A DNA stretch of 64,000 nt from Acutalibacteraceae bacterium (lineage in GTDB: Bacteria; Bacillota; Clostridia; Oscillospirales; Acutalibacteraceae), in assembly GCA_045638145.1 (NCBI GenBank), contig JAZUAU010000027.1:70496-134495 (forward strand), in the 5' to 3' direction. The notes beneath the pieces were generated by a model that was given only the letters and a program-made list of their open reading frames with translations, made no database searches and was not told the DNA's origin. How positions within the stretch are numbered: the stretch's first letter is position 1; each line of letters opens with the position of its first letter. Shown piece after piece: positions 1,977 through 13,277 of this stretch. The position numbers and the translations under genes were made by a program.

Positions 1977-2528
1977 TTAAAAGTTAATTGTTTCTCCACC
2001 CGTTATAAAGCTTTCGGGTTTTGTTCCGTTTGCTTTATAATCGGTATAGTAAACCGAAGTTCCAAGATTAGCGCTTATCTCTACTCTCGCATTGGCACCC
2101 ACTTTTATTGTAAAAGTTATGCTTTCTTCTCCGCCACGGTCGCGTGAGAATACCTGAGTGGTATGATAGGTGTTATTATTTTCCGTTATTTTGAAAAAAC
2201 CTGTTGACGCCGTTCCCTTGTGGCTCACTGTGACGAGATACTCGCCTGGTGTAAGGTCGACTTGCCAACCAGCATTTGCTGCCATGAGGAGTATTTCCTC
2301 TTTGTCCACAGCATTTACTATTTTTACCTCGCCCTCAAAATATGCACCCTCTAAAACGGCAACCTTTGTATTTACGCTGTGAGAAAAATAGGCGTAAGCA
2401 CTAAAAGACATAACCAAAAGGCAACCGACAACGAGAGCTGCACTCAGCACTACCCTGCCAAGCATAACCTTGTCGGGTATTTTTTCGTGCTTTGGGACAT
2501 ATAAAAACTGTTTAAAAAAGCTCTTCAT
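1977..2528 (-). CDS. Small secreted/anchored protein with SipW-type signal-like N-terminus; last gene of the surface-fibre operon
   Basis: N-terminal TM followed by 'SFSAYAYFSHSV', and a 'LTPGEYLVTVSHKG' beta-sandwich-like motif shared with the neighbouring paralogues. Confidence 0.55.
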   Translation of the reverse strand: MKSFFKQFLYVPKHEKIPDKVMLGRVVLSAALVVGCLLVMSFSAYAYFSHSVNTKVAVLEGAYFEGEVKIVNAVDKEEILLMAANAGWQVDLTPGEYLVTVSHKGTASTGFFKITENNNTYHTTQVFSRDRGGEESITFTIKVGANARVEISANLGTSVYYTDYKANGTKPESFITGGETINF

Positions 2529-2563
2529 TTCGGTTCCCTCCTTTCTTGTATTATAACTTTGCT

Positions 2564-3262
2564 TTAGGGTATATCGGTTTGCGAGGCTTCTACCGTTATT
2601 CCAAGATGAACGGTGGGAATATCCTTGCCTCTGTAGTTTGCGTCGTTGCCGACCTCTTCTGGCATAACTACCGTAATTGCCATATAAACGGTTGATTTTT
2701 CATCGAGAAACGCCTTGTTGGTCGAATAATTTCCAAGTGGTGTTGTAGCGGTAGCTCTTGCCACTTCTCTCTTTTGGAGTTCTTGTTTTAATTTATCTTC
2801 ATCCTCAGAAAAGCTAAGTCCGAATTCCAGCTTATCAGACAGAGCAAAGGTTTTTCCGAAAACATTTGTACCGAGGGCATAGTCGGTTACCGTAACGGCA
2901 GTTTTGAAATTAAAGGGCACATCACCCTTGTTTTCCACTTTCAAAAATACCGTTTTTACATATCCCGGCTCGTAAAGTGCATTTTCATCAAAAAGGTCGG
3001 TTGCACCCTCAAGGGTAACGTATTTTCCGTTATCGTCAAGGTATGAAACATCAAGCTCGAATTCAGCCATGTGGAAAACGTTTTTAACCTCCTCGCTTTC
3101 GTCATTGAACCAAGCGAGCGAGGTGCCTGCGCCAAGCAACGCCCATAAAATTATCAGAATAAGGCTTACGGCCAAGGCGATTTTGAGATATTGAGTTTTG
3201 CTATGTGTTGCCGTCAAGCTTATTCCTCCCTTTTGTGTGGTTTTTTGAGAAGCATAGCCCAT
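2564..3262 (-). CDS. TasA/camelysin-family protein with SipW-dependent-type signal peptide
   Basis: 'GAGTSLAWFNDESEEVKNVF' (compare B. subtilis TasA '..TWAAFNDIKS') and 'LYEPGYVKTVFLKVENKGDVPF' (compare TasA 'LKPGDKLTKDFQFENNGSLA'). Confidence 0.7.
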   Translation of the reverse strand: MGYASQKTTQKGGISLTATHSKTQYLKIALAVSLILIILWALLGAGTSLAWFNDESEEVKNVFHMAEFELDVSYLDDNGKYVTLEGATDLFDENALYEPGYVKTVFLKVENKGDVPFNFKTAVTVTDYALGTNVFGKTFALSDKLEFGLSFSEDEDKLKQELQKREVARATATTPLGNYSTNKAFLDEKSTVYMAITVVMPEEVGNDANYRGKDIPTVHLGITVEASQTDIP

Positions 3263-3273
3263 AAAAGGCTAAA

Positions 3274-3933
3274 CTAGTTTTCTTCCTCTTTTCTTTTGCG
3301 CTTTATAAGCAAAACAAAGAGAAATGCTGTGACGCAAAGGCTTGCGCCAAAGACTATATATACAGTTATTGTTGAGTTGTCGCCCGTCTGCGGAGGCTTA
3401 GGGTCGCTCGGCTCTACGGGGAATTCTTCAATCTTAAATTCCCATGTAAGTGCGCCCATTTTCTCGGCATAGCCATTGCCAAGTGAGGTCGGAACGTCGA
3501 GAGTAACATCTAGATTTACCTCTCCACCCGAATAAAGTGTTCCGAGGAGAACCCAATCGGTAAGCCCATCGGTTTCATTTGCCGCAGCATCAAACATATA
3601 TGTCATTTCATTGTCGTCGGATTTTCTGACCTTAAGGTTAAGCTTAGAGAGAAAATCCTCCGATCCGCTGTTAGCTCCGAGCGAGCGCATATAAATTTTT
3701 ACCTTTACCTTGTTCGAAGCGTCGTTTCTGACCGTTACGGTCTGGGTAATGCTGTCGCCCGGCATAACCCCTTTGAAATCCGAGAAAAGGTCGGTTTCGG
3801 AATACTCGCTTCCGTACTCAAAGATAAACTCGCCTGCATTCTTTTCATAAATTACGTTGCCCGCCGCACTTGCAGGAAAGGCAGACAGGATGAGTAATGA
3901 CAGAGCGGTAAAAATCAGAATTAATTTCTTCAT
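3274..3933 (-). CDS. TasA-fold-like cell-wall protein with classical Sec signal and C-terminal (S/P)PXTG sorting signal
   Basis: 'SAFPASA-AG' signal and 'VMPGDSITQTVTVRNDASNKV' motif. The C-terminus is 'PPQTGD' followed by a hydrophobic helix and 'KRKRKEEEN'. Confidence 0.7.
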   Translation of the reverse strand: MKKLILIFTALSLLILSAFPASAAGNVIYEKNAGEFIFEYGSEYSETDLFSDFKGVMPGDSITQTVTVRNDASNKVKVKIYMRSLGANSGSEDFLSKLNLKVRKSDDNEMTYMFDAAANETDGLTDWVLLGTLYSGGEVNLDVTLDVPTSLGNGYAEKMGALTWEFKIEEFPVEPSDPKPPQTGDNSTITVYIVFGASLCVTAFLFVLLIKRKRKEEEN

Positions 3934-3939
3934 AATCTA

Positions 3940-11653: not shown

Positions 11654-11741
11654 TTTTATGACCTCCTTGTTAATCCCGGCTATTTAAATCCGTCCGTTTT
11701 GCCGGATGTTTATGGAGACGGATTTATATTTCAAAAGGTTA

Positions 11742-11963
11742 TTACCTTTTAAAAAACGGTAATAATGAAAGCCAAAGTTTTCGGCGTTTTTTAATGTAGT
11801 GTTTTCTTTCTCTCCCCGTTGTTCTTCCAATTTCATTGTTCAGATGCCGAAGGTCGGGAAGAAAACCTTCGATAACAGAACGGATGGCTCCAAACAGAAT
11901 GAGCGCAATGATAATTGCAACAACAAATATGTATACCGTGTTTTGATTTGCGCCGTTGTCCAT
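11742..11963 (-). CDS. Small single-pass membrane protein (operon member, unknown function)
   Basis: 73 aa with one TM ('VYIFVVAIIIALILFGAI') and a basic tail. Tightly packed between sipW-like and the 589-aa gene. Confidence 0.45.
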   Translation of the reverse strand: MDNGANQNTVYIFVVAIIIALILFGAIRSVIEGFLPDLRHLNNEIGRTTGRERKHYIKKRRKLWLSLLPFFKR

Positions 11964-11988
11964 TTGAATCTCCCTTTTTATGCGGAAG

Positions 11989-12684
11989 CTACTCTGTTAC
12001 CTCTGTTTTCTCTTCCGCTTTGCTTGCCGAAAGCTCTGCTTTGAGGGCTTTCAGTTCCTCGAGCATACGAAGATTTTCTTCGCGCTCGGCTTCAATCTTT
12101 TTCTTTTCCTCTTCGATTTCAGCATTCTGTTCCTGCTTGTATCGACGGAACAGATTAAAGAAGTTTATTCCCTGATACACGATGATGAGCATAAAGGGAA
12201 CAAAAATGCAGACGATATAGCCCTGTGGGGTTTTGAGGAAATTAAAGAAATGTCCCGCTTTGGCAATACGCCCTGTGTATTTTCCCATTATGTAAGGATA
12301 TGTAACGATTATTTCGTCATCAGTATCGGTGGTTGTACCGTAGGTGACAAAGCCGGGTGCACCGTCAGCATCTACCGCCTTGCTTCTGATTTTGTGGGTT
12401 ATCATCTCACCGAAGGAATCTGAATTCTGGCTGATATAAGTGATTATATCGCCCTCCTCCAGTGTCGAAGGGTCTACCTCTTTGGAAAAAATAAGGTCTC
12501 CTGCAGAAAAGTCTGTTTTGGACATCGAATCTGTATTAACAATATACATCCTGTAGCCGAACAGATTCCTATCGTTTCTGCCAAGAACTGCTGTAGAGAT
12601 GATTGTGAACAACATCATAAAGACTGCTACCGCAACAACAAGCCAAACAATGACTGTTTTTGCAATCTCAAAAGCTTTTTTCAC
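11989..12684 (-). CDS. Second SipW-type signal peptidase I with extended C-terminal TM and coiled-coil tail
   Basis: 'NTDSMSKTDFSAGDLIFSK' (Ser) and 'ITHKIR' (His). After the second TM there is a ~55-aa E/K-rich tail ('EEEKKKIEAEREENLRMLEELKALKAELSASKAEEK'). The GTG start overlaps the tetR stop (TAGTG). Confidence 0.75.
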   Translation of the reverse strand: MKKAFEIAKTVIVWLVVAVAVFMMLFTIISTAVLGRNDRNLFGYRMYIVNTDSMSKTDFSAGDLIFSKEVDPSTLEEGDIITYISQNSDSFGEMITHKIRSKAVDADGAPGFVTYGTTTDTDDEIIVTYPYIMGKYTGRIAKAGHFFNFLKTPQGYIVCIFVPFMLIIVYQGINFFNLFRRYKQEQNAEIEEEKKKIEAEREENLRMLEELKALKAELSASKAEEKTEVTE

Positions 12685-13277
12685 TATTCTTGCTCCTTTT
12701 TAAGTCTAAAATAGGGGTTTACCGAATAATAAACAAGTCTAAAAATATGCTCTTCGGTATCCTCACTGTCTCTGACCGCTTTGTCAAAGACCTTTGTTGC
12801 AAAGTCAAGCATCACATTAAGGATATGATTGAGCAGCATCCAAACATTCGCCTCGGGACGAAAAGCGTCTTCAAATTTTTTAACAAGAGGCTTAAATCTT
12901 CTCTCGTGCTCTTCGCTCGAATATTTAGCAAAGTATGGCGAATAATAGTACCGAATATATGCTAGACAATGCTCCTTATTTGCAAGTATGAATCTCCACA
13001 TTTTGTTAAAGAAGATTCTGCATCTTACCTCATAGTCCAGCGTCGGCATATACATTACTTCAATTTGCTTCATCGAAGCCTCAAAAAGCTCGGTATCGAG
13101 CGAATCGAAGGTTTTGCGAAGCAGGTCCTCCTTGTCCTCAAAGAACCTGTAAATATATGCCTCATTAATATCGGTGCCTTTTACGATAGCTTTTGTAGTA
13201 GTCTTATCCAACCCTTCGTTTGCTATAACCGAAACCGTACGAGCGATCAGGGTGGTGCAAACATTTTGACGTTTCAA
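12684..13277 (-). CDS. TetR/AcrR-family transcriptional regulator (first gene of the operon)
   Basis: N-terminal HTH ('IARTVSVIANEGLDKTTTKAIVKGTDINEAYIYRFF') and an all-helical C-terminus. TTG start with GGAGAG RBS. Confidence 0.8.
   Translation of the reverse strand: MKRQNVCTTLIARTVSVIANEGLDKTTTKAIVKGTDINEAYIYRFFEDKEDLLRKTFDSLDTELFEASMKQIEVMYMPTLDYEVRCRIFFNKMWRFILANKEHCLAYIRYYYSPYFAKYSSEEHERRFKPLVKKFEDAFRPEANVWMLLNHILNVMLDFATKVFDKAVRDSEDTEEHIFRLVYYSVNPYFRLKKEQE

Follow-up and report, generated by a model that had tools for sequence, protein, structure and literature searches.

A conserved Oscillospirales gene cluster that may encode a wall-anchored, SipW-dependent surface fibre of the TasA/BsaA type

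TasA fibres form by donor-strand exchange (PMC9674648), and the N-terminus of TapA is donated to start them (PMC10151520), while in Bacillus cereus TasA and CalY form heterofilaments (PMC13082335). In BsaA of Clostridium perfringens, residues 28-38 of one subunit enter the next, an isopeptide bond joins Asn35 to Lys74, and Glu56 serves as the catalyst; most strains of this species carry sipW, bsaA, a bsaB-like gene with an LPXTG motif and a second bsaB-like gene, with srtB adjacent (PMC11580942). More broadly, BsaA and TasA genes often occur alongside genes for LPXTG proteins, signal peptidases and sortases, and the presence of several paralogues in one operon has been taken to suggest heteropolymers (Kivimaki et al., preprint 2024-25, PMC11580942). 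Here we analyse an operon related to these systems in an Acutalibacteraceae bacterium, located in a stretch of 64,000 nucleotides (nt), hereafter the window, that corresponds to positions 70,496 to 134,495 of contig JAZUAU010000027.1 (assembly GCA_045638145.1). The reading that we favour, to which we assign a probability of roughly 0.55, is that this locus encodes a wall-anchored SipW-dependent surface fibre of the TasA/BsaA type, and that it corresponds to an expanded form of the C. perfringens bsa operon.

The operon consists of 11 co-directional open reading frames (ORFs) on the minus strand, running from 13277 down to 1977, with tetR as the first gene and a terminator at the end, precisely as described in the original prediction, which had been made from the sequence alone. 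The gene order is tetR (197 amino acids, aa), sipW-1 (231 aa), a 73-aa ORF, a 589-aa ORF, sipW-2 (179 aa), and then ORFs of 452, 907, 187, 219, 232 and 183 aa, and we refer to the products by these lengths (Table 1). The TAGTG overlap said to couple the first two genes joins the tetR stop codon to the GTG start codon of sipW-1, which is provided with the ribosome-binding site AAAAGGAG. The description of the gaps as short applies to the last four genes (0-35 nt) but not elsewhere, where the gaps measure 88, 120, approximately 155-200, 142 and 293 nt; conserved structured RNA is contained in those of 120 and 293 nt. The search for terminators inside the operon returned no convincing candidate. 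Eight of the 10 ORFs that were looked up are called genes with identical boundaries in the source assembly, among them the 73-aa ORF, sipW-1 with its GTG start and the 187-aa gene with a TTG start. One ORF, listed as 509 aa, begins too early and is more likely to start at the ATG at 9021, which yields the 452-aa product, or at the ATG at 9068, and the start of the 232-aa ORF is uncertain, with orthologues of approximately 216 aa.

The originally proposed placement of the locus in the SipW/TasA/BsaA group is supported by family models together with profile comparison. The six quoted N-terminal strings (TTFAWFTDS in two proteins, SLAWFNAS, SLAWFNDE, SLAYYTN and AYAYFSH) are all present in the sequence. 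Of the six SipW-substrate signals that they were taken to mark, four are recognized by the model for SipW-dependent signal peptides (TIGR04088, cut-off 19 bits), namely those of the 907-aa (27.1 bits), 589-aa (25.7 bits), 452-aa (25.2 bits) and 187-aa (19.0 bits, exactly at the cut-off) proteins, whereas the 232-aa protein just misses this threshold at 17.2 bits and the 183-aa protein gives no hit. The camelysin/TasA model PF12389 (Peptidase_M73, cut-off 22.5 bits) matches the 589-aa (23.7 bits) and 907-aa (22.5 bits) proteins, and the BsaA family model TIGR04090 scores 38.2 bits (E 1.3e-9) against the 187-aa protein and 19 bits against the 452-aa protein.

Profile comparison divides these proteins into two groups. 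A BsaA-like pair is formed by the 187-aa protein and the N-terminal domain of the 452-aa protein (hhalign probability 99.9%), and a camelysin-like trio by the 232-aa protein and the N-terminal domains of the 589- and 907-aa proteins (BLASTP E 2.5e-26, hhalign 100%), of which the latter two are 70% identical over 364 aa by BLASTP. Between the pair and the trio, hhalign returns probabilities of approximately 90-98% that pertain to the N-terminal parts only. The seven TasA-fold paralogues that had been claimed are thus reduced, by BLASTP and profile links, to five TasA-like proteins (589, 907, 452, 232 and 187 aa), with the 219-aa protein, whose link is weak, as one probable addition and the 183-aa protein left without support. 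A scan with family hidden Markov models (HMMs) detected no further paralogue outside the operon in the window. The domain of the 232-aa protein is matched by 2056 cluster representatives, many of which carry it as the N-terminal 210 residues of proteins of 400-1100 aa.

The Pfam name Peptidase_M73, together with older interpretations of camelysin as that peptidase and of TasA as a spore coat-associated protein, raises the alternative that these are secreted metalloproteases or, in a spore former with a SpoVAC gene next door, spore-associated proteins. The assignment of peptidase activity to camelysin has, however, been judged a likely misidentification (PMC11580942), family searches detected no metalloprotease family or motif, and the spoVA neighbour lies past the terminator and a transfer RNA (tRNA) gene. 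We consider an explanation of this kind very improbable.

Among the subunits, conservation is highest for the 187-aa protein, which retains 60-70% identity across families and for which the protein collection contains 1890 homologues. Three residues, Asn37, Glu50 and Lys73, are invariant in its family, and Asn37, Glu58 and Lys84 are conserved in the family of the 452-aa protein. In both cases the order and spacing resemble those of N35, E56 and K74 in BsaA. These residues are candidates for an Asn-Glu-Lys isopeptide triad in both BsaA-like subunits, a feature that is new here, and their conservation makes a bond that locks subunits after strand exchange plausible.

The 219-aa protein differs from the other subunits in its processing signals, and two features noted originally are both present in it: an ordinary Sec signal peptide of the AxA type, and a PPQTG sorting signal that is recognized by the LPXTG model TIGR01167 (19.6 bits, cut-off 15.9) and conserved as PPxTG in orthologues. 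Its C-terminus comprises PPQTGDNS, a hydrophobic stretch and the basic tail KRKRKEEEN. The protein collection holds 5075 homologues, in which the motif DPKPPQTGD is conserved, and the few homologues of the 219- and 187-aa proteins that bear names in their sources are labelled hypothetical or LPXTG proteins. PPxTG belongs to the motif class recognized by SrtB of Clostridioides difficile (PMC4155245, PMC5118464). Comparison with the BsaA-like pair by hhalign gives probabilities of 85-94% over approximately 50 residues, covering the mature N-terminus and the MPGD strand (85% for the 187-aa family profile), and family HMMs cross-match weakly within the window. At its mature N-terminus the protein can be aligned to the donor strand of the 187-aa subunit; a glutamine occupies the position of the lysine in that subunit, and the conserved asparagine is lacking. 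Structure models and Foldseek searches were made for the 219- and 183-aa proteins. The AlphaFold2 model of the former, built from a 46-sequence alignment with a predicted local distance difference test (pLDDT) score of 70, finds TasA as its best match (5of2, E 2.4e-4; 5of1, E 8e-4), with an archaeal bundling pilin (7ueg, E 3.6e-3) also among the hits. On this evidence, the 219-aa protein is probably, though not securely, a TasA-like member of the set.

To determine how widely this arrangement occurs, one genome per species was scanned with the 219-aa family as the query. Relatives were found in 422 species genomes, mostly of Oscillospirales, with the carriers distributed among Oscillospiraceae, Acutalibacteraceae, Faecousia, Ruminococcaceae and unclassified Clostridia; nearly all are metagenome-assembled genomes from animal guts, and one carrier, Hespellia stercorisuis DSM 15480, is cultured and possesses a less elaborate form of the cluster (L008). 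ORFs were then called in 84 loci and labelled by the proteins of the window, with upstream genes counted in the 41 loci that include at least 9 kilobases (kb) of upstream sequence. The order proved to be nearly constant: an optional tetR, sipW1, an optional 73-aa ORF, an optional large fusion, sipW2, a BsaA-like gene of approximately 230 aa, one to three large fusions (400-2500 aa), and then the 187-type, PPxTG, 232-type and 183-type genes. The anchor gene is immediately preceded by a 187-type gene in 63 of 70 loci and immediately followed by a 232-type gene in 68 of 76, and a 183-type gene (180-370 aa) closes the cluster in 57 of 67. Among the 41 loci, 37 have at least one SipW gene and 28 have two, 37 have a second BsaA-like paralogue, and 34 have a large fusion; tetR orthologues stand at the cluster head in 15, and 20 retain the 73-aa ORF in its place. 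The complete arrangement, down to the two peptidases, the TetR gene and the 73-aa ORF, recurs across many species of related Clostridia, and the cluster is a real conserved system, well beyond chance.

Several observations weigh against the assignment of these proteins to a wall-anchored TasA/BsaA-type fibre. The PF12389 matches are barely at the cut-off and cover only profile positions 3-79 of 196. Both TIGR04090 scores fall below the cut-off of 60 bits, and the 187-aa protein is therefore a relative of BsaA rather than an annotated member of that family. Searches of the PDB with the 187-, 232- and 219-aa proteins and with the profile of the 187-aa family retrieved TasA by neither sequence nor profile, and the 219-aa model, which has a pLDDT of 70, matches TasA with template-modelling (TM) scores of only 0.38 and 0.42. 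The resemblance of the Asn-Glu-Lys residues to those of BsaA is one of position and invariance and not an alignment with BsaA. Finally, no sortase (an ORF containing TLxTC) was found in the window, and a sortase-like ORF occurs within 10 kb in just 5 of 80 related loci.

The chief rival is a cluster for SipW-dependent export and display that builds no heteropolymer, in which each TasA-like domain would act as a module for secretion or wall association or, like BsaA, would build a homopolymer of its own, the PPQTG protein would be a wall protein in its own right, and the large fusions would function as adhesins by themselves. In C. perfringens, BsaB does not go beyond dimers and is excluded from BsaA oligomers (PMC11580942), which favours the view that the paralogues do not share one filament. 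The BsaA-like (187, 452 aa) and camelysin-like (232, 589, 907 aa) subfamilies are moreover distant from each other, and the two conserved peptidases might divide the substrates between them. Against this, all subunit types occur together in a strictly conserved order in hundreds of species, the passenger-free adaptor-type protein of 232 aa adjoins the anchor protein in the large majority of loci noted above, and B. cereus TasA and CalY do co-assemble (PMC13082335). We judge the display cluster to be unlikely, though well short of negligible, and we retain the shared, wall-anchored fibre as the preferred reading.

Table 1. Features of the operon and its flanks, given in window coordinates unless a locus is named.
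Feature	Position	Strand	Evidence or remark
TetR-family regulator, 197 aa, first operon gene	12684-13277	minus	PF00440, 35.9 bits
SipW-type signal peptidase 1, 231 aa	11989-12684	minus	TIGR02228
73-aa membrane protein	11742-11963	minus	conserved basic C-terminal motif ELRxLNxEI...RRxLWLSLxPF
589-aa protein: SipW-type signal, TasA/camelysin-like N-domain (~1-215), ~375-aa passenger	9884-11653	minus	
RNA motif copy 1 (P1 hairpin and long P2 stem), sipW-2 leader	9784-9877	minus	model R1, 76.1 bits
SipW-type signal peptidase 2, 179 aa	9224-9763	minus	TIGR02228; PF10502
452-aa BsaA-like protein, C-terminal extension	7663-9021	minus	alternative start 9068
907-aa protein: SipW-type signal, TasA/camelysin-like N-domain, ~690-aa passenger	4797-7520	minus	
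RNA motif, tandem copies in the 293-nt gap before the 187-aa gene	4792-4711, 4677-4544	minus	model R1, 84.7 and 49.5 bits
187-aa BsaA-like subunit, candidate shaft	3940-4503	minus	TIGR04090, TIGR04088
219-aa protein: Sec-type signal, TasA-like body (probable), PPQTG sorting signal	3274-3933	minus	TIGR01167
232-aa protein: TasA/camelysin-like domain alone	2564-3262	minus	BLASTP, hhalign; start uncertain
183-aa protein: cytoplasmic N-peptide, transmembrane helix ending SAYAYFSH, small beta-sandwich	1977-2528	minus	
Intrinsic terminator closing the operon	1944-1969	minus	11-base-pair G+C-rich hairpin and T-run
tRNA-Leu(CAG)	1850-1936	plus	convergent with the operon; ends 8 nt from the terminator
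Candidate invertible element	13417-14918		encloses the recombinase gene and the candidate operon promoter
Inverted-repeat arms, two direct copies	13417-13444, 13498-13518		
Inverted-repeat arm, inverted copy	14891-14918		
Tyrosine recombinase, 365 aa	13724-14821	plus	divergent from tetR; PF00589, E 3.4e-27
Candidate promoter TTGTAT-17 nt-TGTGG TATGAT (extended -10)	13553-13581	minus	toward tetR
Same element in other loci	L046:6152-7672, L082:107-1684, L084:2152-3625		

Two of the paralogues had been described as fusions to beta-helix or GLUG-like passengers. The fusions themselves, each with a TasA-like N-terminal domain, are found in the 589- and 907-aa proteins, but the naming of the passengers is not sustained, since the matches to Glug (E 0.033) and M26_N (E 0.15) are below threshold, and these regions have no significant family match and no significant sequence match in the PDB. 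A third protein, that of 452 aa, also bears a C-terminal extension, of approximately 240 aa. In counterpart proteins from other loci, the corresponding regions contain BspA-type leucine-rich repeats, Listeria-Bacteroides repeats, right-handed beta-helices, a pectate-lyase-like adhesive domain or a Hint module. As judged from these domain matches, the passengers at orthologous positions are mostly of predicted adhesin type and vary among species, which is new here. The Hint module, of the intein/hedgehog type associated with autoprocessing, lies near the C-terminus of the protein encoded at L007:3880-9312, as a match that does not reach the cut-off (E 7e-5); Hint-bearing giant TasA-domain fusions of 1800 aa also occur in loci L026, L027, L044 and L079.

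The 183-aa protein, encoded by the last gene, has no Pfam or NCBIfam hit. Its AlphaFold2 model (pLDDT 77.8) depicts a small beta-sandwich behind a long helix and yields no match to TasA and no other significant fold match in the PDB, the best being an archaeal pilin at E 0.05. Profile similarity to the paralogues is confined to the transmembrane and SAYAYFSH signal region. A conserved cytoplasmic peptide of 20 residues (FxYVPKHGKIxDKVM) precedes the SipW-like hydrophobic segment and is atypical for a cleaved signal. The protein may remain uncleaved and membrane-bound. Proteins of this type in other species carry C-terminal tails rich in threonine, proline and glutamate.

Both of the signal peptidases predicted to be of the SipW type exceed the curated cut-off of TIGR02228, the model for archaeal-type signal peptidase I (51.85 bits), with scores of 60.4 bits for SipW-1 and 112.1 bits for SipW-2. 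Both also score below the cut-off of NF046067, the equivalog model for Bacillus SipW, and therefore are not orthologues of that enzyme. Orthologues of SipW-2 keep the canonical SGSMEP, THRV and KGDAN boxes. Those of SipW-1 keep the serine (DSM) and histidine (THKI) motifs, while the third box is divergent, with GTTTDTDD in place of KGDAN, and they end in a conserved transmembrane segment and a coiled-coil tail, both of which are absent from SipW-2. The tail and the altered box suggest a second role for SipW-1, which might be non-catalytic or scaffolding. The 73-aa protein encoded between the first peptidase and the first large fusion has no family match in Pfam or NCBIfam searches.

The structured RNA in the intergenic gaps was recognized through a 14-mer, GGCGGCRATCAAAG, that occurs three times in the window, against 0.09 expected, always within the operon and always on the sense strand. 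The related loci contain 84 copies, distributed over 50 of the 84 loci (for example L067:6503-6583 and L007:9314-9396), with none in antisense. The 14-mer forms the start of a long stem, P2, whose invariant base pairs CGGCAAUCAAAG with CUUUUGAUUGCCG and which is preceded by a G+C-rich hairpin, P1. The copy in the sipW-2 leader has a folding energy of -24.1 kcal/mol (z -4.4). Among 39 compact copies, 14 of the 25 predicted pairs display compensatory changes, and pairing is observed in 96.7% of cells, compared with 87.6% in shuffles and 33-50% in slid controls. As these copies were chosen for having both invariant strands, pairing in the proximal part of P2 arises partly by construction, whereas covariation of P1 and distal P2 is independent of the selection. 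Searched with a covariance model, the 64 kb yield the three operon copies and no others, and no matching family was found in Rfam 15 at gathering or permissive thresholds. A covarying leader RNA outside Rfam is thus a new feature of these loci.

The motif usually comes after a large fusion gene, as in 62 of the 84 copies, and the gene downstream is of the 187 type in 48 copies, sipW2 in 18 and another large gene in 13. The 14-mer lies at a median distance of approximately 80-135 nt before the start codon, varying with the downstream gene. Our preferred interpretation is that the RNA would act as a processing or stability element that tunes the ratios of subunits, with antitermination and translational control as the alternatives. 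The notion that the 14-mer and its inverted partner constitute a TetR operator was considered and is unlikely, given a spacing that ranges from 8 to more than 100 nt, occurrence on the sense strand only, and covariation of the distal stem and P1. Elsewhere in the window, a T-box leader at 18892-19120 lies upstream of the ORF at 19171-20190.

Upstream of the operon, inverted repeats flank a gene for an Xer-like tyrosine recombinase to which no specific NCBIfam equivalog model corresponds. Close homologues (E 1e-127 to 1e-151) occupy the same place in L046, L082 and L084, directly upstream of and divergent from tetR in the first two and directly upstream of sipW2 in the third, and the arm core TTCGCAGAGTT is common to the window and all three. 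The candidate promoter within the segment falls below the threshold of the promoter scan in the window, yet it aligns with TTGAAA-17-TATATT (TG) in L046 and TTGTAA-16-TATAAT (TG) in L082, such that an outward-facing extended -10 site is found just inside the tetR-proximal arm in all three tetR-linked copies. The arm and the tetR start are just 41 nt apart in L082, and the promoter must therefore lie inside the segment. The doubled arm is found on one side in the window and on the other in L046 and L082, an arrangement that nested inversions would be expected to yield exactly. The second orientation was not seen in metagenome contigs, where the junction 32-mer gave 0 hits in scans that are uninformative on this point. 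Five metagenome contigs (L085-L089), otherwise dissimilar to this part of the window, each contain one copy of the 20-nt arm TTTCGCAGAGTTATCTCATC inside the same 35 nt, CATTTTTCGCAGAGTTATCTCATCCATGAAATAAC. In its sequence organization, the recombinase-carrying segment qualifies as a candidate switch for phase variation of the fibre operon, and is likewise new here.

The presence of a tyrosine recombinase at one end of the region and of tRNA-Leu 8 nt from the terminator at the other would also be expected of a horizontally acquired island extending from the tRNA to an integrase, in which the surface proteins would be incidental cargo and the recombinase would serve integration rather than regulation. 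This explanation was rejected, and we give it hardly any credence. In a related species (L004), the same 3′ half of the cluster adjoins the same SpoVAC and PnuC genes, which argues against recent acquisition; there is no discontinuity in G+C content at the locus; a search of 1500-14000 for repeats of the tRNA 3′ end was negative; and the repeats that bound the recombinase are inverted, not direct, and belong to it alone, while the gene recurs divergently and directly upstream of tetR or sipW elsewhere. The terminator hairpin is common to the operon and the tRNA gene on the opposite strand.

If the favoured reading of a shared, wall-anchored fibre is correct, assembly might proceed as follows. 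After export through the Sec pathway, the SipW enzymes would cleave the special signal peptides and free N-terminal strands that enter the open beta-sandwich of a neighbouring subunit by donor-strand exchange. The 187-aa BsaA-like protein would form the shaft, a role proposed because it is the most conserved subunit and because the conserved leader RNA most often lies directly upstream of its gene. In the 187- and 452-aa proteins, the donor-strand asparagine together with the glutamate and lysine of the body could, as BsaA does, tie adjacent subunits together through an intermolecular isopeptide bond. The 219-aa protein would be cut by ordinary signal peptidase and would donate or accept a strand, and a sortase encoded elsewhere would link it to peptidoglycan, making it the base or initiator of the fibre and a covalently anchored counterpart of TapA. 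The N-terminal domains of the 589- and 907-aa proteins, like those of their 400-2500-aa counterparts, would serve as adaptors that join the fibre and display variable adhesin modules, with the 232-aa protein representing the adaptor domain on its own. Expression would be controlled by TetR, by structured leader RNAs and, in some genomes including this one, by an invertible promoter.

More tentatively, and at odds somewhat short of even, these loci could define a distinct class of Oscillospirales pilus in the gut and rumen, combining a BsaA-like shaft built by SipW processing and strand exchange (possibly isopeptide-locked), a sortase-anchored TasA-like base, pluggable adhesins, two peptidases, a promoter inverted by its own recombinase, and a leader RNA that sets stoichiometry. 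Oscillospiraceae, Acutalibacteraceae and their relatives are abundant, mostly uncultured bacteria of the gut and rumen whose means of surface attachment are largely unknown, and a fibre bearing species-specific adhesins would, if real, be a main candidate for attachment to particles, mucus or other cells. It would also mean that donor-strand-exchange fibres of Gram-positive bacteria include modular adhesive pili as well as matrix scaffolds. With the PPxTG paralogue, it becomes testable whether an LPXTG-bearing BsaB-like protein anchors the fibre, a question that is open in C. perfringens; the candidate phase switch and the leader RNA provide handles on regulation, and the logic of the adaptor domain could be reused for surface display.

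The statement in the original prediction that such loci are uncharacterized requires correction, in that multi-paralogue operons with LPXTG proteins have already been noted (PMC11580942). The succession of 187-, 219- (PPQTG) and 232-aa genes mirrors the arrangement described there, and the central inference of the original prediction was thus anticipated at the level of gene neighbourhood. A full-text literature search returned no paper on the enlarged Oscillospirales cluster with dual peptidases and adhesin fusions; a paper on a "pilin" of TANB77 concerns Tad/type IV-like pili and is unrelated.

The closest described system is the C. perfringens operon sipW-bsaA-bsaB(LPXTG)-bsaB′-bsaC (PMC7395162; PMC11580942), which likewise has a SipW-type peptidase and whose subunit order matches that of the 187-, 219- and 232-aa genes. 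The present proteins have candidates for the Asn-Glu-Lys residues of BsaA, and the proposal that an LPXTG paralogue serves as the wall anchor applies to both systems. In contrast to bsa, the cluster described here has two peptidase paralogues, an additional BsaA-like gene and between one and three large fusions of a TasA domain to an adhesin, as well as the TetR, 73-aa and 183-aa genes; it lacks BsaC (von Willebrand A) and a nearby sortase, and its anchor protein uses an ordinary signal peptide.

With tapA-sipW-tasA of B. subtilis (PMC9674648; PMC10151520) the locus has in common a dedicated SipW, an N-terminal donor strand, predicted in the present case, and the (L/M)xPGD motif, and TapA has a candidate counterpart in the 219-aa protein, an accessory protein that may contribute its N-terminal strand and fasten the fibre to the cell. 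TapA is, however, not a sortase substrate and has a different fold (V-set Ig), while TasA forms a homopolymer that possesses neither the isopeptide triad nor the adhesin fusions proposed here, and the B. subtilis operon is under the control of SinR rather than of a local TetR or an invertible switch. The B. cereus system, sipW-tasA-calY with CapP (PMC13082335), in which TasA paralogues co-assemble, provides a precedent for mixed fibres, yet it is described as sortase-independent, has two small subunits only, and employs a chaperone-like CapP of which no counterpart was detected in this locus. Archaeal bundling pili and TasA-like fibres (PMC9245690; PMC12518558) have the fold class that is predicted here, with 7ueg among the hits of the 219-aa model, and assemble without a chaperone by donor strand, as is proposed for this locus. 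Unlike the fibre proposed here, the archaeal bundling pili are homopolymers that lack a wall anchor and passenger domains.

The division into tip adhesin, shaft and wall-anchored base has a functional analogy, and no more than that, in the SpaA-type and chaperone-usher pili, some of which bear two-domain adhesins such as FimH, and the processing of papBA mRNA that favours the major pilin is a similar analogy for the leader RNA. Pfam and NCBIfam scans of the locus revealed none of the SpaA-type features (pilin motif, E-box domains, class C sortase). In contrast to those pili, there is no usher or chaperone, and the subunits are predicted to be joined by strand exchange after SipW cleavage rather than by sortase. 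We therefore regard the system as a widespread and more elaborate variant, with a predicted mode of assembly, that falls within the known SipW/TasA/BsaA fibre systems.

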